A program made the position numbers and the translations under genes. 64,000 nucleotides of DNA, taken from assembly GCF_964213995.1 (NCBI RefSeq), contig NC_135801.1, forward strand, positions 134,168,001 to 134,232,000. The letters run 5' to 3'. This stretch comes from Mustelus asterias. Taxonomy: Eukaryota. The notes under the pieces were generated by a model. That model worked only from the letters and a program-made list of their open reading frames with translations. It was not told where the DNA came from and ran no database searches. Shown piece by piece: positions 13,515-49,902 of this stretch; the first letter of the stretch is position 1, and each line of letters opens with the position of its first letter.

Positions 13515-15180
13515 TTTGATTTTATTTGATTTGATTTATTATCGTCACATGTATTAGTATACAGTGAAAAGTATTGTTTCTTGCGCGCTATACAAAGCAT
13601 ATTGCACATAGAGATAGAATGCAGAATGTAGTGTTACGGTCCATAGCTAAGGTGTAGAGAAAGATCAACTTAATTCGAGGTAGGTCCATTCAAAAGTCTG
13701 ATGGCAGCAGGGAAGAAGCTGTTCTTGAGTTGATTGGTACGTGACCTCAGACTTTTGTATCTTTTTCCCGACAGGAGGAGGTGGAAGAGAGAATGTCCAG
13801 GGTGCGTGGCATCCTTAATTATGCTGGCTGCTTTGCTGAGGCAGCAGGAGTGTAGACAGAGTCAATGGATGGGAGACTGGTTTGCGTGATGGATTGGGCT
13901 ACATTCATGACCTTTTGTAGTTTCTTACGGTCTTGGGCAGAGCAAGAGCCATACCACGCTGTGATACAACCAGAAAGAATGCTTTCTATGGTGCATCTGT
14001 CGAACATAGAACATAGAAAGCCACAGCACAAACAGGCCCTTCGGCCCACAAGTTGCGCCGATCACATCCCCACCTCTAGGCCTATCTATAGCCCTCAATC
14101 CCATTAAATCCCATGTACTCATCCAGAAGTCTCTTAAAAGACCCCAACGAGTTTGCCTCCACCACCACCGACGTCAGCCGATTCCACTCACCCACCACCC
14201 TCTGAGTGAAAAACTTACCCCTGACATCTCCTCTGTACCTACCCCCCAGCACCTTAAACCTGTGTCCTCTCGTAGCAACCATTTCAGCCCTTGGAAATAG
14301 CCTCTGAGAGTCTACCCTATCCAGACCTCTCAACATCTTGTAAACCTCTATCAGGTCACCTCTCATCCTTCGTCTCTCCAGGGAGAAGAGACCAAGCTCC
14401 CTCAACCTATCCTCATAAGGCATGCCCCCCAATCCAGGCAACATCCTTGTAAATCTCCTCTGCACCCTTTCAATGGCTTCAACATCTTTCCTGTAATGAG
14501 GTGACCAGAACTGCGCGCAGTACTCCAAGTGGGGTCTAACCAGGGTCCTATAAAGCTGCAGCATTATCTCCCGACTCCTAAACTCAATCCCTCGATTAAT
14601 GAAGGCCAGTACGCCGTACGCCTTCTTGACCGCATCCTCCACCTGCGAGGCCGATTTAAGAGTCCTATGGACCCGGACCCCAAGGTCCTTCTGATCCTCT
14701 ACACTGCTAAGAATGGTACCCTTCATATTATACTGCTGCTTCATCCCATTGGATCTGCCAAAATGGATCACCACACACTTATCCGGGTTGAAGTCCATCT
14801 GCCACTTCTCCGCCCAGTCTTGCATTCTATCTATGTCTCGCTGCAACTTCTGACATCCCTCCAAACTATCCACAACACCACCTACCTTGGTGTCGTCAGC
14901 AAACTTACCAACCCATCCCTCCACTTCCTCATCCAGGTCATTTATGAAAATGACAAACAGCAAGAAGTTGGTGAGAGTCGTAGCAGACATACCAAATTTC
15001 CTTAGTCTTCTGGGAAAGTAGATGCTTTGGTCCCTCCATGCCGACACTTAACCATAGTGCCGGCATAGAGGGACCAGGACAAGTAGTTGGTGATCTGGAC
15101 ACCTAAAAACTTGAAACTCTCGACCATTTCTACTTCGCCCCCATTGACGTAGACAGGGGCATGTTCTCCACTACGCCCTC
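13515..15180 (-). mobile_element. Rex1/Babar-like LINE fragment interrupted by CR1 (pieces 13515-14000 and ~14963-15180)
   Basis: EVEMVESFKFLGVQIT, RRLRKFGMSATTLTNF | RCTIESILSGCITAWYG; the sequence is contiguous once the CR1 is removed. Confidence 0.85.
14002..14964 (-). mobile_element. Young CR1 LINE 3' fragment
   Basis: Open frame with KFADDTK and LVRPHLEYC; (CTATGTT)n tail; near-identical to 42204-43167. Confidence 0.95.
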
Positions 15181-16740
15181 CAATTCGCTGGGACTGTTCC
15201 AAAATCTGCAAAATTTTGGAAGATGATAACCAACGCACCCACCATTTCCATGGCCATTTCCTTTAATAGCCTGGGATGTAGATTATCTGGCCCGAGGAAT
15301 TTACCAACTTTCAGTCCTATTAATTTCTCCGGTGCCATTTTTTAGTAAAACTGATTCTCTTCAATTTCTCCTTTTCCTTTCCCGGACATGGTTCCTTAGC
15401 ATTTCTGAGAAGCTTTTTGTGTCTGCCTCTGTGAAGACAGAAAGCAGTTGTTTAACTGCTTTGCCATCTTCTTGTTATCTGTTATAAATTATCTTTTTTC
15501 AGACTGTAAGGCATTTGTCTTCACTCATCTTTTGTTTTTGGGAAAGGGCCAAAACTATCTTAAAAACTACAATAAAAATTAGTATCAAAGTTCAAGTAGT
15601 AGTGTAAAACCAGGTAAGTAGTGTAAAGCATAATAAGGCTAAAAAGCTTCTGAATTTTTAATAGTACTGGCTATGAAGTTTCCCTCAGTTAAGCAAAGGA
15701 GTCCCCAGAGTGATCCTGTCCTAAGCATACAGAAAAATGGAGCCAAGATACATTTAAATACACTGCAATATTTAAATGAAGCTTAAATGAAAGCCATGAG
15801 TCATATTTGGCAAGGCAAGTTCGGGCTGGTGTAAAAGGTCTGTTGGAAATCTCATTCAGTGCCAAAGTGGACCAAATCCAGCTATGTGAATCTGAGCAAG
15901 ATTCTTCAGCTCACTAGCACCTGCTCTGTTGCCACAGAGTGCAGCAATTCAAAAACCTTCACTCAAGAATTGGCAGTGGAGAAAATTGCGGAGAAAAAAA
16001 TAAGTGAAATAAAATACAAGGTGCCAGTGTCATCCATCTCCTTCTGGGCCACATTTGTAAGAAAAGCCTGGAGGATTCACATTATTTGTCAAGGTTCATC
16101 CCAGGTAACTCCATACACAATTTTGTGCTCTGCAGTCTTCACTGGAACAAAAATCAACTGTTGCTGGAAGGCTATCAACTGGGTTTGTTCACTTATTGGT
16201 TTTGCAGGACAAGGAGATGTGTGAGAGCAAGGGCTGGACTTCTAGTTCCCAATGGGACCAATCATGGAGGTGGGCAAGTGTGGCGGGGATCTAATTAAAT
16301 CTACTGAAAGGCTTATTAAAGCTATTGTCAGAGTCAGTCTCATAACACACAGACATAGTTGCCTGAAGATGGTCTCACAGTGGCAGACAGGGTCCAGCAT
16401 TCTACACAGGTTGAAGCCCTCCCTGCCAATCTGCTTCAACTGCATCCACATGCCATCCTGTCGGGAGGTTCCCCCTCCAAAATGCTGGCCCGTCTCTTCG
16501 TCTATTCTTTGCTGTTTTAGAGAAAGCATCTGAAAATGGCAGCATCCTTTCTCTTATTTATTTGAAAGGGCAGTGTGCCCTTCTTCAGTGCTGGCATACC
16601 TCCTTTTGGCCCTCCAGTTTCAAAAGCTTGACTGCTGTCCTCTTTTAGATGTAAGCCCACCCTTCTGCCCCTAATTAGTCAATTTTGAGAAAATAACAGC
16701 CAAGTGACTTCCCCAAAGGGACGGACTTCTGATCCCCATT

Positions 16741-19420
16741 TAGAACCATAGAACATTACAGCACAGAAACAGGCCTTTTGGCCCTTCTTGCCTGTGCCGA
16801 ACCATTTTTGTGCCAAGTCCCACTGACCTGCACCTGGACCATATCCCTCCACACCCCTTTCATCCATGTACCTGTCCAAGTTTTTCTTAAATATTAAAAG
16901 TGAGCCCGCATTCACCACCTCATCTGGCAGCTCATTCCAAACTCCCACCACTCTCTGTGTGAAGAAGCCCCCCCGCTAATATTCCCTTTAAACTTTTCCC
17001 CCCTCACCCTTAACCCATGTCCTCTAGTTATTTTCTCCCCTAACCTCAGTGGAAAAAGCCTGCTTGCATTCACTCTATCATAATTTTATACACCTCTATC
17101 AAATCTCCCCTCATTCTTCTATGCTCCAGGAAATAAAGTCCTAACCTATTCAACCTTTCTCTGTAACTCAGTTTCTCAAGTCCCGGCAACATCCTTGTAA
17201 ACCTTCTCTGCACTCTTTCAACCGTATCAATATCCTTCCTGTAATTAGGTGACCAAAACTGCACACAATACTCTAAATTCGGCCTCACCAATGTCTTGTA
17301 CAACCTCACCATAACATTTCAACTCCTATACTCAATACTTTGATTTATAAAGGCCAATGTACCAAAAGCACTCTTTACGACCCTATCTACCTGTAACGCC
17401 ACTTTTAGGGAATTATGTATCTGTATTCCCAGATCCCTCTGTCATACTGCACTCTTCAGTGTCCTACCATTTACCTTGTATGTTCTACCTTGGTTTGTCC
17501 TTCCAAAGTGCAATACCTCACACTTGTCTGCGTTAAATTCCATTTGCCATTTTTCAGCCCATTTTTCTAGCTGGTCCAAATCCCTCTGCAAGCTTTGAAA
17601 ACCTTCCTCACTGTCCACTACACCTCCAATCTCTGTATCATCAGCAAACTTGCTGATCCAATTTACCACATTATCATCCAGATTATTGATATAGATGACA
17701 AACAACAATGGACCCAGCACTGATCCCTGTGGCACACCACTAGTCACAGGCCTCCACTCAGAGAAGCAATCCTCCACTACCACTCTCTGGCTTCTTCCAT
17801 TGAGCCACTGTCTAATCCAATTTACTACCTCTCCACGTATACCTAGCGACTGAACCTTCCTGACTAACCTCCCATGCGGGACCTTGTCAAAGGCCCTACT
17901 GAAGTCCATGTAGACAACATCCACTGCCTTCCCTTCATCCAGTTTCCTGGTAACTTCCTTGAAAAACTCTAATAGATTGGTTAAACATGACCTACCACGC
18001 ACAAAGCCATGTTGACTCTCCCTAATATGTCCCTGTCTATCCAAATATTTGTAGATCCTATCTCTTAATGCTCCTTCCAATGATTTACCTACTACTGACG
18101 TCAAACTTACCGGCCTATAATTTCCCGCATTACTTTTTGAGCCTTTTTTAAACAACGGAACAACATGAGCTATCCTCCCGTGGATACCGACACTTTAAAT
18201 ATATCTGCCAGGGCCCCTGCAATTTCAACACTAGTCTCCTTCAAGGTCCGAGGGAATACCCTGTCCGGTCCTGGGGATTTATCTACTCTGATTTGCCTCA
18301 AGACAGCAAACACCTCCTCCCCATTAATCTGTATAGGTTCCATGACCTCCCTACTTGTTTGCCTTATTTCCATAGACTCCATGCCAGTTTCCTTCGTAAA
18401 TACGGATGCAAAAAACCCATTTAATATCTCCCCCATTTCTTTTGGTTCCATACATAGCCGACCACTCTGATCTTCAAGAGGACCAATTTTATCCCTTACT
18501 ATCCTTTTTCTCTTAATATACCTGTAGAAGCTGTTAGGATTATCCTTCACCTTGTCTGCCAAAGCAACCTCATGTCTTCTTTTAGCCCTCCTGATTTCTT
18601 TCTTAAGTAGTTTCTTGCACTTTTTATACTCTTCAAGCATTTTATTTGCTCCCTGTTGCCTATACATGTCATACATCTCTCTCTTCTTCTTTATCAGAGT
18701 TCCAATATCCCTCAAGAACCAAGGTTCCTTATTCACTTTGCCTTTAATCCTGACAGGAACATACAAACTCTGCACTCTCAAAATTTCTCCTTTGAAGGCC
18801 CACTTACCATTCACATCCTTGCCACCATTCACATCCTTGCCAGAGAACAGCCTGTCCCAATCCACGCTTTTTAGATCCTTTCTCATTTCTTCAAATTTGG
18901 CCTTTTTCCAGTTTAGAACCTCAACCTAAGGACCAGATCTATCTTTATCCATGATCAAGTTGAAACTAATGGCGTTATGATCACTGGAACCAAAGTGTTC
19001 CCCTTCACACACTTCCGTCACTTGTCCTAACTCGTTTCCTAATAGGAGATCTAATATTGCATCCTGTCGAGTTGGTACCTCTATATATTGATTTAGAAAA
19101 TTTTCCTGAACACATTTTACAAACTCTAACCCGTCTAGACCTTTAACAGTATGGGAGTCCCTATCTATATGTGGAAAATTAAAATCCCCCACTATCACAA
19201 CTTTATGTTTCCTGCAGTTGTCTGCTATCTCTCTGCAGATTTGCTCCTCCAATTCTCGCTGACTATTGGGTGGTCTATAATACAACCCCATTAACGTGGT
19301 CATACCTTTCCTGTTTCTCAGCTCCACTCATATGGCCTCGGTAGACAAGCCCTCTAATCTGTCCTGCCTGAGCACTGCTGTAACATTTTCCCTGACTAGC
19401 AATGCCAACCCCCCCACCCT
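16741..19420 (-). mobile_element. CR1 LINE ORF2 (endonuclease + RT), disrupted, with internal deletion near 18165
   Basis: ORFs 18926-19327 (YRPPN, GDFN, SDH), 18170-18886, 17442-18155 (QHGF, PQGSVLGP, FADD) and 17070-17312. Confidence 0.95.
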
Positions 19421-21549: not shown

Positions 21550-21870
21550 TTGTAAATTACAAGATAGACATGGAAGTTGTTTCCTCTGGCTGGGGATTGA
21601 ACACAGTCTTAGGTTAAGGGTCCACCATTTAGGACTGAGGTGTGGGAACATGGGCTCATTTTGAGGGTGGTGAATCTTCAGAATCAAACCCCTGATGGCT
21701 ACTCTATTTTGTGTAGACTTAAGGTTGAGAGAGAGAGATTTTTGGTCTCTCATCGAATCAAAGTATACAAGGAAGCAGGCAGGAAAATTATTTTGAGGTA
21801 AAAGATCAGCCATAATCCTATTGAATGGTGGAGCAGGCTTGAGGGGCTATTCTTGCTCCTATTTCATATG
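21550..21870 (+). mobile_element. Old CR1 3' end
   Basis: Resembles the 3' end of 47373-49902 (gatcagccat...attgaatggtggagcaggcttgagggg). Confidence 0.6.
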
Positions 21871-22297: not shown

Positions 22298-23180
22298 ACT
22301 TCAATAAAGATAAGTGTGAAGTGGTACATTTTGGTAGGAAGAATAAGGAGACCACATATTTCTTGGAAATTAAGCATCTTAACATGGTAGAGGAACAGAG
22401 GGATCAGAGTACAAGTACGCAAATCACTAATAGTCAATAAGACATAAAAAAGCACACTAGGGTTCATTTAAAGAGAAATATAATTGCAAAAACACAAAGG
22501 TTATGTTGAGGTTCTATAGAACCTTGGATATGGTGAGCAGGACTGGAGTCTCCATTTTATAAAAAGGATGTATAGAGGAACTGGAGGAGGTGCAATAAGA
22601 TTCACTAGAATGGCACATGAACTGAGAGGTCACATGTATCAGGAAAGGTTGAACAAGTTGCGGCTCTATTCCCAGGAAGAGAGAAGATTGAGCGGTAACA
22701 AGGGGTCGTTAAGAACATACAAATTAGGTGCAGGAGTCAGCCAAGGGGGCCTCAAGCCTGCTCTGCTATTCAATAAGATCACAGCTGATCTGATTGTGGC
22801 CTCAATCCACATTCTGCTGCCTACTCCTGATAACCTTTGACTCCCTTATTAGTCAAGATTATGAAAGGTTTGATAGAGTTGACAGAGAGAAGATACTTTC
22901 ACTTGCAATGGAGGCCAGAACAAGGGCCATTATTTTAAGATAGCTACTGATAAATCCAATAGGAAGTTCAGAAGAAACTTCACTCAGTAACTAGTTAGAA
23001 TGTTAAAATTGCAACCACAAAGTGTAGTTCTGGAAGCCAGGATAGATATACTCAAGGGAAGCCAGATAAATATTTGAGGGAGAAAAGAACAAGGGGGATA
23101 TATTGATGGGGCTAGACTAAGAAAGTAGGGAGAATGACCATGAAGAACATAAATACTGACATGGACTTGTTGGGTTTCTG
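22298..23180 (+). mobile_element. Old CR1 fragment with a nested antisense CR1 3' end (~22710-22855)
   Basis: DKCEVVHFGRKN and YQERLNKLRLYS motifs. Confidence 0.65.
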
Positions 23181-25807
23181 AATTACAAATACTATGAAAT
23201 ATTATGTGGAGTCATATATTTTTATTAATTCATGGGATGTGAACATTTCCATCGAGGCTGTTGCCCATCCTTAATTGTATTTCAGAAGTTGATGGTGAAA
23301 GACATGAAGGCTTTAGAAAGAATGAAGAAAGGATTCCAGGAATGAGGAACTCCTGTTATGTAGATAAACATGAGAAGCTGGGGCTGTCCTCCTTGGAGAA
23401 GAGAAGGTAGAAGAGGGCAGTTAAGAGTCAGCCACATTTCTATGGATCTGGAGTCACACGTAGGACAAACTGGGTGAAAATGGCAGATTTCCTTCCCTGA
23501 TGGACAGAACTTAACCAGATGGGTTTTTATAATGGTCATCATTACTGACATTAGCTTTTTAATTCGAGATCAATTAATTAATTGAACTTAAATTCTACTA
23601 GCTTTTAGTAGATTTTACTTGCATCTCCTGAGCATTCGTCCCATCCTCTGGATTACTAGTAACGTTACCTTCACTATTCCTGCATGTGGATGGTTGCTAT
23701 ACTACTGCCTGAAAGAGTGAGGTAGAGACAGGAACCCTCACATTTAAGAAGCATTTTGATAAGCACTTGAAACAACTTGGCATACAAGGCTACAGACAGG
23801 TGCTGGAAAATGGGATTAGAATAGATTGGTGCTTGATGGCTGGCACAGACATGATGGGTTGAAAGGCCTCTTTTGTGCTGTGAAACTCTATGAATCTATT
23901 ACCTAACGTCTCTACATTGTTTCAAAGAAGTTAATTAAAAGTCAAACAATGCAACACTAATTGGCCCAAATTTTCTGTTCCCCAAAGGGCCGTACGCCAG
24001 AGGTTCTCTTGGAAGTCCCCCGTCAAGCACTGCACAGGAATTGCCCCGGAAGTTCCCACTTCCATTGGGTAATTACTCTGCACATGAATGCCTCTGATAC
24101 TCCAATTTAAAGTTGGAGATTTTGGGTAGTTCCGACTCTGTTAGCAGAATAGGTACTCAAGAAACGTTACACACACTAAAACCAGTTCTAACTCCTGGGT
24201 AACTATACTACTAACCCACTGACCCCTACTGGTCTCCCTCTCTACTCCCCCAATCCCAGAATGACCTCTAACTACCCCTTGAACCCCCACTCCTCAAATA
24301 GAAATAGCACCCCCCAACCCCATCCCCGACCGTGCTCCCACCAATTAACAACCCAACACCCCCCTGACCACCCAACTAATTTCTGCAATGCTGACTAATC
24401 ACATGCCACTTGACTAGCCCCCCCCTCCGAGCCATCTCACTAACCACCCCAACCCCCTCAACTACTCCCATGATCCCCCGATCCCCTGATTAATGTGTTT
24501 TCTTGGTGAAGGATGAAGCAAGATAGCATTGTGAATAACCAGCCTGAGAGTGTGAGATTCTGAGAAGCACAAATGTCCTTTGTTGGCCAGGTGCTTTCCA
24601 GAAGTGAATTTATTTATAAAGGGAAATATCACATACGCTAGGACAGTATCGGAATGTCATCATATTAGTTACCATCAGTTGCTTGGCAAAACCTAATTTG
24701 CTCTTGGAGCAATGTTTTAACTTGTTTTGCACAATATAAGTGAAACGTGCCAATGAGCTCAACTGTTCAGAAATTTCCATCAAAACTAAGTTCCGATCTG
24801 ATTACCTGTTGAAGGGCTGGGTTAGCTTAAATACACAACTCCTGTAACATTATATTACAAATATTGGTGGCGAAATGAAATAGCTTTGACCTGAGAAACC
24901 AGCTATGGATAGTGCATCACATAGGGCTAGATTTCATTGCTGATGATCTTTTCCAGCAATTAAGGTTAGATGTATGCATATTGCTGTAACTTGTTCCTAT
25001 ACACAATAGAGGGTATCTTTTAGGAACATAGTGAACCATCATTATAATTCAGTGATCAGCATTTATTAAAACAGAATTAACACTTACAAATGCAATAAAA
25101 TTCTTCATAAAGCCTTCAGTATGTAGGGTGATATAATATTAATTGCCATATTAGCTAGAAATTATCAAGGATCCTGGTGCAATTACTGAATGTTCACAAA
25201 GTATCCATTCAATAAGAATGTGTTATCAACAGAGTTGTCAAACAGTGGAATGTGCCTCAAAGGCATTTGATTACAAGTTAAGACAGGTTATTCAAATTCT
25301 ATATAATTCATTGGCAATGCCACATTTGGAATACTGCATGCAATTTTGGACAGCCGGCATTCAAAACCATCTTTGTGCATTAGAAAGGGCCCAAAGAAGA
25401 GCAATAAGGGCAATTCAAGGGTTTGACCTCTAAGCATTGGAGAGATACTTATAGAATTAAACTTGTTTTCATTGAGAAAAAAACACTGAGATGGGACTGG
25501 TCTTTAAAACATTGAGAAGCCTAAGTAATGGAGATCTATTAACCCACACTGCATTACTCAAATTGGACTGCACAGTGTAAAATCAACACACCTCAAGCAA
25601 ACAAACTAACTGTTGAAAAGACTTTGCCAAACAAGTTGTTGCTAATTCAAATAATTGCCTGAAAAAAAACCAAGATAAATACCTGGTAAAGAGCAGAATT
25701 TTGGTAATATGGATTGAAACAGTAGAATGCTATGTTATACATAAAGTGTTGTCAGTAAAAACCAACTAGACAAGGTTAATAAGTTTGGTTGTGACTTTAG
25801 TTTAACA

Positions 25808-26440
25808 TTCTCAGCCTTTTTTTAATACTTTTCCAATTCAATCAAATCAAGTCCAATTCAGAGTCTCAACAAGTTGAGACATTTCTGATCCAGGCTGACA
25901 AGACAGGGCATGCAATCCTCTACCCTGTCTTGGGCCTGATCTACATGAGCCAAGCCGATTGGAGTAGGCAGACATCTCCGCCCCCCCCAGGCTTGATCTC
26001 ATTTGCATCTTAGCCAAAAGGCCAAGATACCGCTATTAAAAATTGCTTCATATGAAACATATGAAGCTTAAATGCAACCCAATGGCCACTACCAAGTGCA
26101 GCATCTGCAGACTACACTTGATCTTAGCCAAAAGGCCGAGAAGGTCAAGTGGAGTTTTTGATCCTGCACCTGGTCTAAGCCAATGAGGTTACACCGAGGC
26201 TTCACCTGAAGCAATTTTTTTAAAGCGATCTTGGCCTTTTGGCTAAGATGAAGCTCAGATCAAGCCTGGGATGGGGTGTAATGCCTCAGCCTGTCAGCTT
26301 GGATCTTGTTCGATCGAGCCCAGGAAAGGAACAATGGCCTTCCTTGTCAGCTTGGATCTGTTTTGTCTCTCTTGTGGGGTGTCTGATTGGGCCAAATTGG
26401 ATTTTTGATTGGGAATAAAGTACCAAAAGGTACAAAAAAA
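25808..26440 (+). mobile_element. U2/U4 snRNA-chimeric retroposed element (outer copy; split by inner copy: 25808-25820 + 26141-26440)
   Basis: TTCTCAGCCTTTT...AAGGTCAAGTGGAGT (U2 5' end), AGCCAATGAGGTTACACCGAGGC (U4 5' stem-loop), GCAATTTTTTT, TCTTGGCCTTTTGGCTAAGAT, AATTGGATTTTTGA, AATAAA and an A7 tail. TSD AG(T/C)TTAACATTCT at 25799-25811 and 26440-26452. Confidence 0.8.
25817..26143 (-). mobile_element. U2/U4 snRNA-chimeric retroposed element (inner copy)
   Basis: 26111-26143 reverse complement CTTCTCGGCCTTTTGGCTAAGATCAAGTGTAGT equals vertebrate U2 nt 5-37 as recalled. Same module order as the outer copy; ends in A7. Confidence 0.8.
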
Positions 26441-28279
26441 GCTTAACATTCTTAAATTCTGCTGAATTACCTTCTAGATTTGAAAGAAATTTCCCCTTGG
26501 AGATTAAATAAATTGCTTCAATATTCATTCATTTCCAATACCACTGCACATGTGGAGCCAAGGTGAAGTGCAGTCTTCTGATGAAGCAGGACTAAAAGAT
26601 GGGGGGAATAACTAATTTGGGGCACATAGATATGCAGTCTTCGTTTTAAAGTTAGAAATTCCTTATTTTTTGAGTTCCATTTTAAAATTCAGTCAAATGA
26701 AATGTATCACTGCCTCGGATATTGTAAATATTTTAGGAACAGGAATGTAATTTCAAAAAACAGCTTAATAAAAATATATAATTATGAGGACTGAACAGCA
26801 ACTAGTTTGTGTAATGTCAGTCACAATTACTTCAAGTGTCCTTTGGCAACCAGTTCTCTTGATTTCTTAATGTTTTCTACCATCATAATTTCTTCCTAAA
26901 ATATTGAAATGGCCACCTTTTGACAATCACCACATCTCACTAAGGGTTGTATATCAAAATTAAATCTCAAATACCATTTCACTTACCAGGTGAAGTACAA
27001 ACACAGTTCAAATAAATGAAGGCATTATGCTGTTATGTTATTCACTGCAACAAAATCATAGTCATTGATTATCAGAGCCATATTCTCAATAATCTGTTAA
27101 CACGCTTTTTCCTTTGATCCAAGTTTGCTGTTTATGATTGCCCTCTGTTCAGAACTTCCCTTAGATATTCCCACCTATTCTGTTCCAACATTGGGCAGTT
27201 CTTTCCCAGCGAGAACGTATGCCATTGCCTTTCAAAGTCACAGGTAATTTTGCCTGGCTTATTACAAATAAGCAACTATGGTGTATCATGAAAATTAAGC
27301 TTCACACAGCTTTGCATTAATAAATCCTGCGCGAGTCAAACATTCAGGCTATTTTAAACCAAATTACATTTACAAAGACAAGTGGAAAGCAAAAGAGAGA
27401 CTGGTTTAAAATTAATTTCTGCAATAGTAACCTGCGATATTTTCTGTAGATTAACAAAATGGATATGCAAAATAGACATTGCACCATCACTTTACAAGTC
27501 TTAGAAAGGCATGTAATTCAACAAAATTCCGAGATAGTAACCAATATGAAAAAGATAATTACAGAAGATTATTCAAAGTTGATTCAGAGAGAACAAGGGG
27601 CACAGGTTTAAACTAGCAAAAGTCTAATGCAAGAAAACACTTTCTCACAGAATGGTCAACACATGAAATTGACTTCTGATAGTATAGTTAAAACAGTAGC
27701 ATGAGAGTGGTTGTACATAGATGCGGCAATGCATGAACTAAAATAAGTAAATGGCTTTCTTTATCCAAAATTATCTTGAGATCTTATGGATTAATATAAA
27801 CTGTATGGCCAATTACATTGTTTAATCAACCTATTATGTGAAATTTTATCTATTTAATTCATTTTCCTCTATGGAAGTACCCATAATATTTGAAAGATTT
27901 AATATGTAACTTTTTGTTAAAATATTTATTGCATAAGGAGTTTGGTTTCACCATGAAGCCAAATACACTGTACATCAACTTCTCCTTGCAAATCTCACAC
28001 AAGCTTCGCTAACGATTCAGTCCACCTATTTAATAAGCAGCTGACAAACACAGAGCAGTGTGATCACTGGGCTACATTGAGTTTAAATGTAGCAATGGTA
28101 AGGCAAATAGCCTAAGATGCCTAGAGTTAAGTCATTTTTCTGATAACTATCGAGGAGTTAATAGCATTGAATCATAACTTCGGACAGACTAGATCCTGAT
28201 GTTGTATTCTATCCCCTCTCTAATTGAATATTCTGTCAACACTCACTGTCAAGGTTCATGAACATCTATTTGGGCATTT

Positions 28280-38905: not shown

Positions 38906-41900
38906 ACAATTGCCCACATTTGGCCCATGTCCCTCTATACCCATCTTACCCATGTAATTGATTAAACACTTTTTAAAAGATGAAATTGCACCCATCTCTA
39001 CTACTACCTCTGGCAGCTCGTTCGACACTCACCACCCTCTGTGAAAAAATTGCCCCTCTAGATCCTTTTGTATCACCTTAAACCTATGCCCTCCAGTTTT
39101 AGATTCCCCTACCTTTGGGAAAAGACGTTGACTATCTACCATATCTATGCCCCTCATTATTTTATAGACCTCTATAAGATCACCCCTAAGTCTCCTAAGC
39201 TCCAGGAAAAATGTCCCAGTCTATCTAACCACTCCTTATAACTCAAACCAACCGGTAGCATCCTAGTAAATCCTTTCTGCACTCTTTCTAGTTTAATTAT
39301 ATCCTTTCTATAAAAGGGCGACCAGAACTGTACACAGTATTCCAAGTGTGGCCATACCAATGTCTTATACAACTTCAATAAGACGTCCCAATTCCTGCAT
39401 TCAATGTTCTGACCAATGAAACCAAGCATGCCGAATGCCTTCTCCACCACTCTGCCCACCTGTGGCTCCATTTTCAAGGAGCTATGAACCTGCACTCCTA
39501 GGTCTTTTTGTTCTATTACTTTCCCCAACGCCCTACCATTAACTGAGTGGGTCCTTCCCCGATTCAAAAATGCATCACCTCAAATTTATCTAAATTAAAC
39601 TCTATTTGCCATTCATTGGCCCACTGGCCCAATTGATCCTGTTGCAATCCTGGATAACCACTATGCCACCAATCTTGGTGTCATCTGCAAACTTACTAAC
39701 CAGGGCTCCTAAATTTTCATCCAAATCATTAATATAAATGACAAATAACAGTGGACTCAGCATCGATTCCTGAGGCACACTGCTGGTCACAGACCACCAG
39801 TTTGAAAAACAACCCTCCAGAAGCACCCTCTGTCTTCTGTCATCAAGCCAATTTAGTATCCAATTGGCTACCTCATCCTGGATCCCGTGAGATTTAACTT
39901 TATGCAACAACCTACCATGCAACTTACCTTGTCAAAGGCCTTGCTAAAGTCCATGGAGACAATGTCGACTGCACTGTCCTCTTCTACCTTCTTGCTTACC
40001 CCTTCAAAAAACTCAATCAAATTCGTGCGACATGATTTTCCACTCACAAAGCCATGCTGACTGTCTTTTTTAAACAGGTGTGACCTGTTTAAAAAAGACG
40101 GGTGGCACTTGAATCCCAGGGGGACCAATATCCTGGCGGGAAGGTTGGCTAAGGCTACTGGAGAGACTTTAAACTAGAAAGGTTGGGGGGAGGGAATCAA
40201 AATGAGGGGACTGAGAGCGAGGAGGTTAGCTCGCAAATAGATAAGGAATGTAGACAGGGTAAGAGGGAGGTTAGACGAGTGATGGAGAAGGGAAGTGCTC
40301 AGGCTGAAGGTCTGAGATGTGTCTATTTTAATGCCAGGAGTGTAGTGAATAAAGTGGATGAGCTTAGAGCGTGGATTGCTGCTTCGAATTGTGATGTGGT
40401 GGCCATTACGGAGACTTGGATGTCTCAGGGACAGGACTGGGTGCTTCAGGTGCCGGGTTTTAGATGTTTCAGGAAGGACAGGGAGGGAGGCAAGAGAGGG
40501 GGGGGAGTGGCACTGTTGATCAGGGATAGTGTCACGGCTGTAGAGAAGGTGGACGCCGTGGAGGGATTGACTACGGAGTCTCTGTGGGTGGAGGTTAGGA
40601 ACAGGAAGGGGTCGGTAACGTTGCTGGGTGTTTTCTATAGGCCGCCCAATAGTAACAGAGATGTTGAGGAGCAGATGGGGAAACAGATCCTGGAGAGATG
40701 TAGGAATAACAGAGTTGTCGTGATGGGAGATTTTAATTTCCCAAACATAGATTGGAATATCCCTAGGGCTAGGGGTTTGGATGGAGAGGAGTTTGTTAGG
40801 TGTGTCCAGGAGAGTTTCCTGACACAGTATGTGGATAAGCCTACTAGAGGAGAGGCTGTACTTGATCTGGTGCTGGCTAATGAACCTGGACAGGTGGAGG
40901 ATCTCTCGGTGGGTGAGCATCTTGGGGATAGCGATCATAATTCTATCTCCTTCACGATAGCATTGGAAAGAGATAGGATCAGGCAGGCTAGGAAAGTGTT
41001 TCTCTGGAGTAAAGGGAAATACAGTGTCATCAGGGAGGAAATTAGACGGGTAAATTGGAAGGAGGCATTCTTGGGGAAAAGTACCGAAGGAAAGTGGAGG
41101 ATTTTCAAGGAATGTTTGTCTGGAGCTCTGCATGACAACGTTCCGATGAGACAAGGGGGTGTTGGTAGGGTACGGGAACCGTGGTGCACGAAGGTTGTGA
41201 TGAACCTGGTGAATAAGAAAAGAGAGGCGTACAGAAGGTTCAGAGAGCTAGGAGGTGTTAAGGATTTAGAGGAGTATACGGGATGTAGGAAGGAGCTTAA
41301 GAAGGAAATTAGGAGAGCGAGAAGGGGTCATGAGAAGACCTTGGCGGGTAAGATTAAGGAGAATCCCAAGGCTTTCTACAAATATGTCAAGAGTAAAAGG
41401 ATGAGATGTGAAGGCACAGGACCCTTAAAAGGTGAAGGGGGAAAAGTTTGTGCGGAACCGTTAGAAATGGCGGAGGTGCTTAATGAATACTTTACCTCGG
41501 TATTCACGGTGGAAAGGGATCTGGGTGGTTGTACTGCTGGTTTGCGGTGGACAGAAAGGATCGAGCATGTGGACATAAAGAAAGAGGAGTGTTGGAACTA
41601 TTGAATGGCATCAAGGTTGGTAAGTCGCCGGGACCGGATGGGATGTACCCCAGGTTACTGTGGGAGGCGAGGGAGGAGATTGCGGAGCCTTTGGCGATGA
41701 TCTTTGCATCGTCGATGGAGACGGGAGAGGTTCCGGAGGATTGCAGATGTGGTCCCTATATTCAAGAAAGGGAACAGGGACAGCCCGGGAAATTACCGAC
41801 CGGTGAGTCTAACCTCAGTGGTTGGTAAGTTGATGGAGAGGATCCTGAGAGACAGGATTTATGATCATCTAGAGAAGTTTAGTATGATCAAAAGTAGTCA

Positions 41901-43950
41901 GCACGGTTTTGTCAAGGGCAGGTCGTGCCTTACGAGCCTGGTTGAGTTCTTTGAAAATGTGACCAAACACATTGACGAAGGAAGAGCGGTGGATGTGGTC
42001 TATATGGACTTCAGCAAGGCGTTCGATAAGGTCCCCCATGCAAGACTTCTTGAGAAAGTGAGAGGGCATGGGATCCAAGGGGCTGTTGCCTTGTGGATCC
42101 AGAACTGGCTTGCCTGCAGAAGGCAGAAAGTGGCTGTGGAGGGGTCTTTCTCTGCATGGAGGTCAGTGACCAGTGGAGTGCCCCAGGGATCTGTTCTGGG
42201 ACCCTTGCTGTCTGTCATTTTCATAAATGACCTGGATGAGGAAGTGGAGGGATGGGTTGGTAAGTTTGCTGACGACACCAAGGTAGGTGGTGTTGTGGAT
42301 AGTTTGGAGGGATGTCAGAAGTTGCAGCGAGACATAGATAGAATGCAAGACTGGGCGGAGAAGTGGCAGATGGACTTCAACCCGGATAAGTGTGTGGTGA
42401 TCCATTTTGGCAGATCCAATGGGATGAAGCAGCAGTATAATATGAAGGGTACCATTCTTAGCAGTGTAGAGGATCAGAAGGACCTTGGGGTCCGGGTCCA
42501 TAGGACTCTTAAATCGGCCTCGCAGGTGGAGGATGCGGTCAAGAAGGCGTACGGCGTACTAGCCTTCATTAATCGAGGGATTGAGTTTAGGAGTCGGGAG
42601 ATAATGCTGCAGCTTTATAGGACCCTGGTTAGACCCCACTTGGAGTACTGCGCGCAGTTCTGGTCACCTCATTACAGGAAAGATGTTGAAGCCATTGAAA
42701 GGGTGCAGAGGAGATTTACAAGGATGTTGCCTGGATTGGGGGGCATGCCTTATGAGGATAGGTTGAGGGAGCTTGGTCTCTTCTCCCTGGAGAGACGAAG
42801 GATGAGAGGTGACCTGATAGAGGTTTACAAGATGTTGAGAGGTCTGGATAGGGTAGACTCTCAGAGGCTATTTCCAAGGGCTGAAATGGTTGCTACGAGA
42901 GGACACAGGTTTAAGGTGCTGGGGGTAGGTACAGAGGAGATGTCAGGGGTAAGTTTTTCACTCAGAGGGTGGTGGGTGAGTGGAATCGGCTGACGTCGGT
43001 GGTGGTGGAGGCAAACTCGTTGGGGTCTTTTAAGAGACTTCTGGATGAGTACATGGGATTTAATGGGATTGAGGGCTATAGATAGGCCTAGAGGTAGGGA
43101 TATGATCAGCGCAACTTGTGGGCCGAAGGGCCTGTTTGTGCTGTGGCTTTCTATGTTCTATGTTCTAATCAGTCCTTGCCTCTCTAAATACCTGCAGATC
43201 TCGTCTCTCAGAAAACCTTCTCACAACCTACCCACTTCAGATGTTAGGCTCACCAATCTCTAGTTCCCAGGCTTTTCCCTGCAACCCTTCTTAAACAAAG
43301 GCACAACATTTGCTACCCTCCAATCTTCAGACACCTCGCCTGTGGCTATCGATGATTCCAATATCTCTGCCTGGGGACCTGCAATTTCCTCCCTAGCCTA
43401 CCACAACGTCCTGGCATACACTTCATCAGGTCCCGGGGATTTATCTACCTTGATGCGCTTTAAGACTTCCAGCACCTCCTTCTCTGTTACATGTACTCTC
43501 CTCAAGACATCACTGTTTATTTCCCCAAGTTCCTTAACATTCATGCCTTTCTCAACAGTAAATACTGGTGAGAAATATTCATTTAGGATTTCACCATCTC
43601 TTGTGGATCCGCACATAGATGATTTTGTTGATCCTGAAGAGGCCCTACTCTCTCCCTTGTTACTCTTTTGCCCTTTATGTATTTGTAGAAGCTCTTTGGA
43701 TTCTCTTTTGTCTAGTCCCCTTTTTGCCCTCCTGATTTCTCTATTAACTCTACTCAAACAACCTCTGTAGTCTTCAAGGGATCCACTTGATCCCAGCTGC
43801 CTATGCATGTCATATGCCTCCTTCTTCTTTTTGACCAAGGCCTCAATATCCTGAGTCATCCAGGGCTCCCTACTTCTACTAGCCTTGCCCTTCAGTTTAA
43901 AAGGAATGTGCTTACCCTGAACCCTGGTTAATGCACTTTTGAAAGCCTTT
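38906..43950 (-). mobile_element. Older CR1 LINE split by a younger CR1 (pieces 38906-40065 and 43166-43950)
   Basis: ORFs 39172-39567, 39602-39922 and 43398-43950; ...ctgactgtc | ctaatcagtcc... rejoins the (L)I(R)DSQHGF region. Confidence 0.9.
40063..43167 (+). mobile_element. Young CR1 LINE: ORF1 esterase C-terminus + complete ORF2 with about three frameshifts + 3' UTR
   Basis: DLFKKDGWHLNPRGTNILAGRL*, ORF 40183-41604 (NARS, ITETW, GDFN, SDH), ORF 41704-42993 (RT), (CTATGTT)n tail. Confidence 0.97.
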
Positions 43951-44595: not shown

Positions 44596-47372
44596 AAAAA
44601 AAAGGGCACAGACATTACAGGTCATTAAGTGATGTGAGACCAATGAACACAGCTGAGTAGTGAGTAAGTCCTGGTGGGTATTTCCAAACCATATTAAATT
44701 GAAACTCATTGTTTAGGCAAGGGTAGGGAACTATTTGCTTTTTTTCTTTTTTTATAAAAAATTATAAAGTTTTTAAACTTAAACGGTTTACTCATGTCAG
44801 GAGAGCTTGAAGCTGTGGTTTGCCCTTCTTGCTCCATGTGGGAGGCCGGGCACATTTCCAGTGCCCGGGGCCAGCATGTGTGCAGGAAGTGTGTCCAGCT
44901 GCGCTCCTGGAAGCTCGAGTTTTGGCGCTGGAACAGTGGCTGGATACACTGTGGAGCATTCACGAGTCTGAGAGCATTGTGGATAGCACATTTAGGGAGG
45001 AGGTCACACTGCAGCTGAAGGGACTTGAGGAAGGAAGGGAATGGGTGACCACCAGGCAGCCCAAGAGATGTAGGCAGGTAGTTCAGGAGTCCCCTTGGGT
45101 CTTATCCAGAAATTGGTATTCCATTTTGGAGGCTGATGAGGGAGTTCCTCCAGGGAGTGCAGACAGACCCAAGCTTCTGACACCACAAGCAGCCTGTCCG
45201 TACAGGGGAGAGGGAGGGGGGGAGAGAAGAGAGGCAGGGCAGTAGTAATAGGGGATTCAATAGTGAGGGATACAGATAGGCGCTACTGTGGTCATCAACA
45301 TGACTCCAGGATGGCATGTTGCCTCCCTAGTGCTAGGGTCCGGGATGTCACTGAACGGCTGCAGGACATTCTGAAGGGGTAGAGTGATAAGGCAGAGGTC
45401 ATGGTACATGTTGGTACCAATGACATAGATAGAAAGAGGGATGCGGTCTTGCATCAAGAATTCAGGGAATTAGGCAGTAGACTAAAAAGCAAGACCTCTT
45501 GGTTTGTAATCTCAGGATTACTCCCAATGCCATGTGCTAGTGAGCACAGAAATAGGAGGATAGTGCAGATGAATGCGTGGATTAAGAGATGGTGCAGGAG
45601 GGAGGGTTTTAGATTCCTGTATCACTCAACCATTTCTGGGGAAGGTGGGACCTGTACAAATGGGATGGTCTACATCTGAACCAGAATGGGACTAACATCC
45701 TTGCGGGACGTTGTGCTAGTGCTGTTGGGAGGTGTTTAAACTAATTTGGCTGGGGAAGGGACACAGACTGTTAGCAGAAAAAGGGCATGGAATCATACAG
45801 CAAAACAAACAAGTCAGAGGGAGTGCAGCTGTATTAAATTTCAAGGAAGTAAGGCCAGGCTGGATGGCCTCTTTTTTAACGCCAAGAGTATTGCAAGTAA
45901 AATGGATGAGTTAAGGGCAATGATTAACATGTGGGAGTGTGATATAGTAGCCATCACAGAGATATGGTTGAAGGCAGGACAGAATTGGCAACTCAGCATT
46001 CCAGGATATAGAATCTTCAGATGAGACAGGGGAGAAGGTAAAAGAGGAGGAGGCATTGCATTATTAGTTAAGGAGTCAGTTACTGCAGTAAGGAGTGATG
46101 ATATATTGGAGGTGGCATCAAATTTTGTGGGTAGGGCTTAAGAATAAAAAAGGGCAGGCAGCCACATTATTAAGTTATTATTATAGACCCCAAGATAGTC
46201 AGAGGGATATTGAGGAGCAAATCTCCAGGTCCGAATGAATTGTGCCCTAGGCTGCTGTGGGAGGCAAGGGAGGAAATTGTAAGGACTCTGACCCAAATTT
46301 TCAATTCTTCTCTGGCCACGGGGGGAGGTGCCAGATGACTGGAAAACAGCTATTTGGTTATATGGTTCTGCTATTTAAGAAGGGTTGTAGAGAAAAACCA
46401 GAGAACTACAGACCAGTGAGTCTCACGTCAGTAGTAGGGAAACTATTAGAGAAATTTCTGAAGGACAGCATCTATCTCCACTTGGAGAGGCAAAGCTTGA
46501 TCAGGGATAGTCAAGTTGGCTTCGTTAGAGGGAGGTCATGCCTAACAAATTTGATTGAATTTTTTGAGCAGATGACCAGGTTTGTAGACGAGGGTAGTGC
46601 AGTCTAAGTAGTTTATATGGATTTCAGCAAAACCTTTGACAAGGTCCCACATGGGAGACTTGTAAAGAAAATAAATTCACATGGGATACAGAGTAATTTG
46701 ATAAAGTGGATTCAAAATTGGCTCAGTTGTAGGAGACAGAGGATGTTGACAGAAGGATGCTTCAGTGACTGGAAGCCAGTGTCCAGCGGCACACCACAGG
46801 GATCTGTGTTAGGCCCCCTATTATTCGCAATTTATATAAATGACAATGATGACTATGTGAGGGGTAGGATTAGTAAGTTTGCAGAAGACACAAAGATTGG
46901 ATGGGTGGTCAACAGTGAGGCGGAGCGTCTTGGGCTACCAGAAGATATAGACAGAATGGTCAAATGGACAGATAACTGGCAGATGGAATTTAACCTTGAA
47001 AGGTGTGAAGTGATGGACTTTGGAAGGAGTGATTTGACAAGAAAGTATTCAATGAATGGTAGGGCACTCGGAAGTTCTGTGGAACAAAGGGACCTTGGCA
47101 TGTTTGCCCATAGATCTCTGAAAACGGAAGGGCATGTTAGTTGGGTGGTGAAAAAGGCATATGGGACACTTACCTTTATCAATCGAGGCATAAATTACAA
47201 AAGCAGGAAGTCATGTTGGAGTTGTATAGAACTTTGGTAAGGCCACAGCTAGAGTACTGTGTGCAGTTCTGGTCACCACATTATCGGAAGGCTGTGATTG
47301 CACTGGAGGGGATGCAGAGGAAATTTACCAGGATGCTGACTGGCATGGAACATTTAAGTTATGAAGAGAGGT

Positions 47373-49902
47373 TGGCACAAAATGCACCACGAAATAGAAA
47401 GGGCATGTCAGAAAGGCAAGGTCACAGTGATCATGGGGGATTTCAATATGCAGGTGGACTGGGTAAATAATGTTGCCAGTGGACCCAAAGAAAGGGAATT
47501 CATTGAATGTTTACAGGATGGCTTTTTGGAACAGCTTGTGATGGAGCCCACGAGGGAACAGGCTATTCTGGACTTAGTGTTATGTAATGAGCCAGACGTG
47601 ATAAAAGATCTTAAAGTAAGGGAACACTTAGGAAGCAGTGATCATAATATGGTAGAATTCAGTCTGCAATTTGAAAGAAGGAAGGCAGAATCAGATGTGA
47701 AGGTTCTACAGTTAAATAAAGGTAATTACAGGCGCATGAGGGAGGAACTGACAAAAATCGACTGGAAGCAGAGCCTAATGGGAAAGACAGTAGAACAGCA
47801 ATGGCAGGAGTTTCTGGGAGTAATTGAGGACACAGTGCAGAGGTTCATCCCAAACAAAAGAAAGGTTATCAGAGGGGGGATTAGGCAGCCATGGCTGACA
47901 AAGGAAGTCAGGGAATGCATCAAGGCAAAAGAGAGAGCCTATAATGTGGCAAAGAGTAGTGGGAAGTCAGAAGATTGGGAAGGCTATAAAAACAAACAGA
48001 GGATAACAAAGAGAGAAATAAGGAAGGAGAGGATCAAATATGAAGGTAGGCTAGCCAGTAACATTAGGAATGATAGTAAAAGTTTCTTTAAATACATTAA
48101 AAACAAACGGGAGGCAAAAGTAGACATTGGGCCGCTCCAAAATGACGCTGGTAATCTAGTGATGGGAGACAAGGAAATAGCTGAGGAACTTAATAAGTAC
48201 TTTGCGTCAGTCTTCACAGTAGAAGACATGAGTAATATCCCAACAATTCAGGAAAGTCAGGGGGCAGAGTTGAATATGGTTGCCATCACAAAGGAGAAAG
48301 TGCTAGAGAAACTAAAAGGTCTGAAAATTGATAAATCTCCGGGCCCAGATGGGCTACATCCTAGAGTTCTAAAGGAGATAGCTGAAGAAATAGTGGAGGC
48401 GTTAGTTATGATCTTTCAAAAGTCACTGGAGTCAGGGAAAGTCCCAGAGGATTGGAAAATCGCTGTTGTAACCCCACTGTTCAAGAAGGGAACAAGAAAA
48501 AAGATGGAAAATTATAGGCCAATTAGCCTAACCTCAGTTGTTGGCAAAATTCTAGGATCCATCGTTAAGGATGAGATTTCTAAATTCTTGGAAGTGCAGG
48601 GTCGGATTAAGACAAGTCAGCATGGATTTAGTAAGGGGAGGTCGTGCCTGACAAACCTGTTAGAGTTCTTTGAAGAGATAACAAATAGGTTAGACCAAGG
48701 AGAGCCAATGGATGTTATCTATCTTGACTTCCAAAAGGCCTTTGACAAGGTGCCTCACGGGAGACTGCTGAGTAAAATAAGGGCCCATGGTATTCGAGGC
48801 AAGGTACTAACATGGATTGACGATTGGCTGTCAGACAGAAGGCAGAGAGTTGGGATAAAAGGTTCTTTCTCAGAATGGCAACCGGTGACAAGTGGTGTCC
48901 CGCAGGGTTCAGTGTTGGGGCCACAGCTGTTCTCTTTATATATTAACGATCTAGATGACGGGACTGGGAGCATTCTGGCCAAGTTTGCCGATGATACAAA
49001 GATAGGTGGAGGGGCAGGTAGTATTGAGGAGGTGGGGAGGCTGCAGAAAGATTTAGACAGTTTAGGAGAGTGGTCCAAGAAGTGGCTGATGAAATTCAAC
49101 GTGGGCAAGTGCGAGGTCGTACACTTTGGAAAAAAGAATAGAGGCATGGACTATTTTCTAAACGGTGACAAAATTCATAATGCTAAAGTGCAAAGGGACT
49201 TGGGAGTCCTAGTCCAGGATTCTCTAAAGGTAAACTTGCAGGTTGAGTCCGTAATTAAGAAAGCAAATGTAATGTTGTCATTTATCTCAAGAGGCTTGGA
49301 ATACAAAAGCAGGGATGTACTTCTGAGGCTTTATAAAGCACTGGTTAGGCCCCATTTGGAGTACTGTGAGCAATTTTGGGCCCCACACCTCAGGAAGGAC
49401 ATACTGGCACTGGAGCGGGTCCAGCGGAGATTCACACGGATGATCCCAGGAATGGTAGGCCTGACATACGATGAACATCTGAGGATCGTGGGATTATATT
49501 CATTGGAGTTTAGGAGGTTGAGGGGAGATCTGATAGAAACTTACAAGATAATGAACGGCTTAGATAGGATGGACGTAGGGAAGTTGTTTCCATTAACAGG
49601 GGAGACTAGGACGCGGGGGCACAGCCTTAGAATAAAAGGGAGTCACTTTAGAACAGAGATGAGGAGAAATTTCTTCAGCCAGAGAGTGGTGGGTCTGTGG
49701 AATTCATTGCCACAGAGGGCTGTGGAGGCCGAGACGTTGAGCGTCTTCAAGACAGAAATTGATAAATTCTTGATTTCTCGAGGAATTAAGGGCTATGGGG
49801 AGAGAGCGGGTAAATGGAGTTGAAATCAACCATGATTGAATGGTGGAGTGGACTCGATGGGCCGAATGGCCTTACTTCCGCTCCTATGTCTTATGGTCTT
49901 AT
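47373..49902 (+). mobile_element. Young 5'-truncated CR1 with uninterrupted ~815-codon ORF2 segment
   Basis: ORF 47361-49823 runs from mid-endonuclease (GDFN, SDH) through RT (FADD) to the natural stop; (TCTTATGG)n tail. Confidence 0.97.

Follow-up and report, generated by a model that had tools for sequence, protein, structure and literature searches.

The closest described relatives of the element studied here are the families SINEU-1, -2 and -3 (Kojima 2015), which, in the available portion of that paper, are reported only from crocodilians and for which SINE transcription is left open (PMC4494074). A U2-derived 5' head, a length below 500 bp, an A tail, internal oligo-T and repeated U2 pieces are described there, and all of these features recur in the shark family at the present locus. 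Tandem copies around the target site duplication (TSD) and a Keno-related Tx1 LINE as mobiliser are likewise common to both according to the same portion of the source (PMC4494074), the mobiliser of the shark family being deduced from shared targets. SINEU prefers Mariner-N4_AMi as its target and has Tx1-Mar as its partner (PMC4494074, available portion), whereas here the likely partner LINE itself is found between nt 37 and 38 of U2. Compared by description, the shark SINE also departs from SINEU in entering U2 genes and its own head, in possessing an inverted look-alike of the target, and in its young age (2-5% divergence).

Among LINEs, the element of this genome resembles Keno, as presented in the accessible parts of the sources, in its U2 position and conserved 3' flank (PMC6136364, PMC4640811) and in its APE domain and sense orientation in U2 arrays (PMC4494074, PMC4640811, PMC6136364). 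Unlike Keno, it is mostly dispersed, is also found antisense at nt 46 of the SINE, and appears to drive a SINE. Utopia uses the same U2 site, and some of its families display weakened specificity and U2-like junctions; a 5' U2 fragment is lost on its integration, and it encodes a restriction-like endonuclease in a single ORF (PMC4640811, in part). The LINE examined here has an APE domain and a separate ORF1, which set it apart from Utopia. In the literature searched, no report of a SINEU-like family was found from sharks or from any group beyond crocodilians, and the accessible parts of PMC5381603 and PMC5786205 contain nothing on other taxa with SINEU; Repbase, Dfam and subscription papers lay outside the scope of this search, and the family may be catalogued there.

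Structure and age of the nested pair

The stretch of DNA analysed (the window) comprises 64,000 nucleotides of Mustelus asterias, and the nested pair of SINE copies occupies positions 25799..26452. The outer, older copy lies on the plus strand. It is flanked by a 13-bp TSD with 1 mismatch between its sides (25799..25811 and 26440..26452), the final 4 bases of the left side being also the first bases of the U2 head. Its 5' piece (25808..25820) corresponds to U2 nt 6-18 and ends in TTTT, while the rest, which belongs to an older subfamily, extends from U2 nt 23 to the A tail (26141..26440, the tail ending at 26440) and includes an internal U2-like motif at 26229-26253. The inner, young copy (25817..26143) lies on the minus strand and measures 327 bp from U2 nt 5 to its A tail. 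On this strand the U2 head, nt 5-37, is found at 26111..26143, the intact nt-46 site in the 3' arm of the 5' hairpin at 26086..26105, and a second, internal U2-like motif (about U2 nt 7-27) at 26007..26027. Rfam places a U2 head on the minus strand with an E value of 1.9e-6 and 43.6 bits, which is below the 46-bit gathering score.

The initial annotation had observed that removal of 25821-26140 rejoins a U2 sequence with 4 nt lost, and this was reproduced: after excision, 25808-25820 (U2 nt 6-18) meets 26141-26155 (U2 nt 23-37, two mismatches), so that U2 nt 19-22 of the outer copy are absent at the junction. The coincidence of the inner A tail with the target TTTT, noted at the same time, can be seen in the 7-nt T run at 25817..25823, of which 4 T belong to the target and all 7 to the inner tail. 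At the other end, U2 nt 5 (26143) is the first base of the inner copy. The three bases with which this copy opens, U2 nt 5-7, coincide with target nt 23-25 and give the 3-base microhomology already described at 26141..26143 of the plus strand. The geometry of target-primed reverse transcription, to which these features had been ascribed, is supported.

Both copies belong to a family with a unit of approximately 330 bp, arranged as U2 nt 1-37, a fold-back arm, another U2-like motif, then the body and the A tail. The young consensus matches the U2 gene of the same genome at 37/37 positions and departs from it at nt 37, which is the insertion point of Keno. A 5' hairpin of -34 kcal/mol is predicted for nt 10-73, and its arm reproduces U2 nt 19-42 in inverted form. 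The family possesses the features of a SINEU-type element, namely an snRNA-derived head, a short non-coding unit, an A tail, many like copies, and TSDs or target truncations; a TSD was called for 64/135 tails, with a median of about 15 bp, and the flanks of the sampled copies are diverse in appearance. Exact counts in the 3.68-Gb genome gave 4318 occurrences of the young-tail 18-mer and 10770 of the U2 motif. An origin of the SINE body from the 5' end of the LINE was considered and is unsupported, as 280 and 19 of 300 shuffles reach the score. Extra U2 fragments are also present at SINE 5' junctions or flanks (L064:1837-1855, L075:1835-1860, L246/L249 and L166), comparable to the 5' extensions of SINEU-2, and template switching onto U2 RNA seems to be common at the 5' junctions.

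The two copies can be aligned along their length at only about 70% identity. Measured against a consensus of the best 29 relatives of each copy, the divergence from the own subfamily is 2.2% (6/269) for the inner and 6.9% (20/289) for the outer copy (Fisher p 0.009), with about 6.5-6.9% for the part of the outer copy from U2 nt 23 onward; the nearest relatives are 93-97% identical to the inner and 82-90% identical to the outer copy. When 256 family copies were clustered into eight groups, the inner and outer copies fell in different groups. The difference in age and in group therefore indicates two insertions at different times. A single insertion, with template switching or twin priming between two SINE RNAs, had been offered as the alternative, and it would account for the one TSD that encloses both copies and for an inner junction that is a deletion rather than a TSD. 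It is nevertheless very improbable: the copies stem from subfamilies that differ in age, collinearity of the outer copy is preserved across the inner one, and the same geometry occurs with TSDs at other loci, three sister cases retaining 2-8 duplicated target bases. The composite is thus likely to have arisen by two successive insertions.

Other repeats are present in the window. LINE remnants with APE and RT domains are located at 14082-18925 (-), 40153-42993 (+) and 47358-49823 (+) and are unrelated as far as tested, while 21803-21844 and 22750-22791 form an inverted pair of a 42-nt repeat tail, likely two copies of one common SINE or LINE end. Repeats near the locus are, as we presume, reminiscent of shark SINEs.

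Insertion sites of the family across the genome

Among 96 tails sampled by position, 17 are followed by family sequence within the next 130 nt downstream, where chance would give about 0.1%; 11 of these are head-to-tail, 2 are sense insertions at nt 28-29, 2 are antisense near nt 46, and 2 are of other types. Genome-wide junctions were counted with exact patterns and are lower bounds, most of them obtained with a 15-mer tail that is slightly looser than the 18-mer of the denominator. On this basis, at least 276 junctions are head-to-tail, just upstream of another copy, and at least 45 are antisense at element nt 43-49. Sense matches are concentrated at nt 29 (14/19). None of the 19 falls at nt 38 of a SINE head, even though part of that site survives in some subfamilies. 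For seven tails the junction is exactly at U2 nt 38, which is the Keno site; one of these (L253) lies inside a true U2 gene array. The rough rates per intact site are 7/108 for U2 nt 38, 45 per 1456 or more for nt 46, and 4/10770 for nt 18. Control sites within the element yielded no true insertion in these counts: the AATTT of the body had one match, a tandem junction with a mutated head; the internal GAT^GC (the caret marking the nick) had one match, which was nt 29 of a head; nt 73 had none; and nt 105, which has the top matrix score in the element, had 0 true of 2 matches, one case being visible in L180.

Self-targeting is real, and it is centred on sites other than nt 18. The excess of nesting over chance that had been suspected from this one locus is borne out when the whole family is considered. 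Examination of the flanks for enrichment in sibling copies and U2 genes showed that the family enters its own copies as well as U2 nt 38, and the nested insertions concentrate at a few fixed positions.

In the tandems, the younger subfamily lies upstream in 9/10 pairs when subfamilies are ordered by nests only, and in 26/28 with a fuller ranking; the latter was partly fixed after the data had been seen, and 9/10 is the cleaner count. This polarity indicates that an incoming copy goes again to the former target next to the head, not to the A tail, and it speaks against tandems having formed by insertion into old A tails. Separate tandem arrays with an identical target sequence within another abundant repeat were also found (L008 and L085).

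The antisense nests at nt 43-49 are independent events. In 27 of 30 fetched the junction lies at one and the same GAT. Both the length of the TSD and the extent of 5' truncation differ between loci, and some nests are triple; unique flanks in 29/30 examined rule out a composite master copy. The 3-base join observed at the present locus recurs in 6/30 of these nests.

For the nt-18 site, the genome was searched for a young tail lying antisense immediately after the T run of the U2 motif. Sixteen matches were obtained, 4 in U2 motifs of the family, 4 in one other repeat and 8 in unrelated flanks. The family cases comprise three heads (L061, L068 and L075, the present locus included) and one internal motif (L069), and in all 4 the first nick falls after the same T run. 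The nick-site matrix predicts about 0.02 such events, so the 4 observed represent a real excess (Poisson p 7e-9, or 4e-6 if the expectation is 0.1), the expectation being rough because present-day exact motif counts stand in for the targets at the time of insertion. Plain priming of the A tail at a T run followed by GG, in which the U2 motif would play no part, with clustering due to open chromatin or intrinsically cleavable loci, would be in keeping with the 12/16 junctions of the same left context that lie outside the family, 4 of them at one T8-12^GG site of another repeat, and with the low rate of 4 per 10770 motifs. Such an origin is improbable, since 4 events stand against 0.02-0.1 expected, other T-rich or high-scoring sites in the same copies have 0 true hits, and the fixed positions nt 29, 38 and 46 go beyond what chromatin alone would produce.

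The initial annotation had also inclined to a dedicated antisense target in stem-loop I of U2, at nt 18-22. The common position of all 4 first nicks and a count above the matrix expectation speak for it. The comparison of sites speaks against it: 4 of 4318 young tails are found here, against 45 at nt 43-49, 276 upstream of a head and 7 at U2 nt 38, which makes nt 18 roughly tenfold rarer than nt 46 and, in counts, about 70-fold rarer than the upstream site. Furthermore, no true U2 gene is present among the 16 matches (0/4 of the family junctions), and none of the Keno tails proved to lie at nt 18, the sole match being an unrelated Tx1 in other DNA. A dedicated target at nt 18-22 is consequently very improbable, and we infer that nt 18 is a minor, spill-over site. 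The T8-12^GG site of the other repeat, with its 4 insertions (L064, L066, L070 and L071), is a second recurrent target; this repeat has 702 exact 20-mers, the matching subtype was seen in 4/12 sampled, and empty copies are available in L287, L291, L293 and L294.

A nick matrix was built from 46 dispersed SINE sites, after 16 of the 62 called sites had been removed as tandem-internal or family-derived. The resulting signature, (A/T)T^(A/G)CT, amounts to 2.4 bits and is present in 6/10 called TSDs of the LINE. An L1-type TTTT^AA preference was dismissed, as the signature is short and tolerates G. High matrix scores were obtained for the Keno U2 site (30) and for nt 46 (44). The nick context of Keno in U2, CAGAT^ACTACACTTG, and that of SINE nt 46 on the opposite strand, CAGAT^GCTGCACTTG, are look-alikes, since the hairpin arm repeats U2 nt 19-42 in inverted orientation. 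The nt-46 site is thus an inverted, degenerate copy of the U2 target of Keno within the 5' hairpin of the SINE. In the old subfamily of the outer copy this look-alike is poorer, with C replacing the purine after the nick. Positions +4 to +12 of the dispersed sites are unlike the U2 target (2.7 vs 2.4 matches), and re-use of the upstream site, in 6% of cases, is left unexplained by the short signature.

The Keno-type LINE and the U2 genes

True U2 genes form arrays on C24. An 8035-bp U2 unit contains a 5.6-kb LINE between U2 nt 37 and 38 (L218:1429-7276), in a frameshifted copy. The domains of the LINE include a CCHC ORF1 (PF00098), APE (PF03372), zf-RVT (PF13966) and an RT motif, together with a partial RVT_1 below the cut-off. 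It lies in U2 genes 37 nt from the 5' end and has a conserved U2 3' flank in L218, L253 and L269, and additional copies occur at nt 29 and antisense at nt 46. The genome has 695 exact tails of this LINE, mostly dispersed. Seven of 30 sampled tails adjoin the U2 head of a SINE or LINE, U2 nt 38 or the nt-46 site, and a single one is at U2 nt 38. Strict U2 specificity fails, 29/30 sampled tails being dispersed or beside SINE heads, and with 1/30 at U2 nt 38 the element is therefore labelled Keno-type with relaxed specificity.

SINE and LINE share U2 nt 38, nt 29, nt 46 and tandem TSDs as sites. The earlier suggestion of a U2-directed endonuclease is borne out to the extent that the Keno-type LINE uses the same sites as the SINE. 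The 3' ends of the two elements show only weak similarity (a score attained by 19 and 14 of 1000 shuffles), and the partnership consequently rests on the shared targets; judged from these sequence comparisons, the Keno-type LINE is likely to be the partner of the SINE. In L253, located in an array region, a 99% copy of the LINE, a U2 TSD, a SINE and U2 nt 38-191 follow in this order. SINE copies in L247, L251 and L252 have an upstream flank in common with an intact variant U2 unit of L252. The end of the head at nt 37, together with copies in U2 units, suggests that the SINE may be transcribed from the snRNA promoter.

Several further features of the U2 loci were observed. A variant U2, 85-90% identical to the main gene and with its own upstream flank, forms short units on C1, C14 and C21 (L247, L250-L252 and L269) that have many SINE and LINE insertions at nt 38; these units are candidate source loci or 3' transductions of the LINE. 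In L218, a dead LINE with a SINE-like insert lies in the tandem 8035-bp unit and has been amplified along with the U2 genes. In the 1833-bp U2 array of C24 (L219 and L220), several U2 copies have an internal duplication of 16-20 bp that ends close to nt 37 and may be a mark left by aborted cleavage at the Keno site. At L221:3560-3740, what we take to be a U1-like 5' stretch lies shortly upstream of a U2 head that is followed by a divergent Keno-like start.

A model of self-targeting and its meaning

The reading that we consider probable is that the young SINE was placed antisense in the older head by later target-primed reverse transcription, driven by a Keno-type Tx1 LINE with loosened U2 preference. 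Source copies of the SINE inside U2 genes would be transcribed from the snRNA promoter, which would account for a head of exactly 37 nt. The ORF2p of the LINE would have carried the young SINE RNA and been drawn to the U2 head of the old copy. Preference goes to the former target immediately upstream of a head, to nt 46, to nt 29 and to nt 38 of true U2; the poorer nt-46 look-alike of the old subfamily may have made TTTT the nearest usable site. The APE endonuclease would then have nicked the top strand after TTTT (nt 18), and the A tail would have paired with the four T and primed the cDNA, the end of which would have been joined through the 3-base microhomology at nt 23-25, with nt 19-22 lost.

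Relaxed DNA recognition by the Keno endonuclease accounts directly for U2 nt 38 and nt 46, and RNA-DNA pairing or the accessibility of the locus may contribute to the heavy re-use of the upstream site. Homing by pairing, in which the head of the SINE or Keno RNA, or U2 snRNA, pairs with the genomic head and a tethered endonuclease nicks whichever usable site is nearest, regardless of strand, could act jointly with the Keno endonuclease and is regarded as a tentative possibility. The sites in use are grouped near the head, from about -20 to +48 and on either strand, and do not extend deeper into the body, younger copies lie on the head side of tandems, many sense insertions at nt 29 have seamless heads, as if cDNA had annealed to the old head, and the sequence signature alone under-predicts nt 46 about 300-fold. 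On the other hand, nt 46 can be explained without RNA as an inverted look-alike of the Keno DNA target; the equally pairable internal U2-like motif has 1 insertion at TTTT and 0 at the following GAT^GC; body sites are almost unused, yet the whole 330-nt RNA is homologous; and SINEs also stack upstream of 5'-truncated LINE pieces without a visible U2 head (L009, L274 and L276).

The present locus is a minor case of a family-wide pattern of self-targeting. This genome contains a young family with a head that stops at the Keno site, with copies in U2 units and an identifiable partner LINE, and both transcription and mobilisation thereby become directly testable. A further idea, unlikely in our estimation, is that the U2 head serves both as a device for promoter capture and as a homing guide, the RNA head tethering the Keno endonuclease and the hairpin acting as an inverted decoy of the Keno target in thousands of places. 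If true, a non-LTR element would be homing to itself with the assistance of RNA, and there would be a sink diverting Keno from the U2 genes. With thousands of heads and four landing positions of unequal strength, the family offers a natural read-out of how a site-specific APE endonuclease is relaxed and of how a SINE can become the main decoy of its partner LINE.
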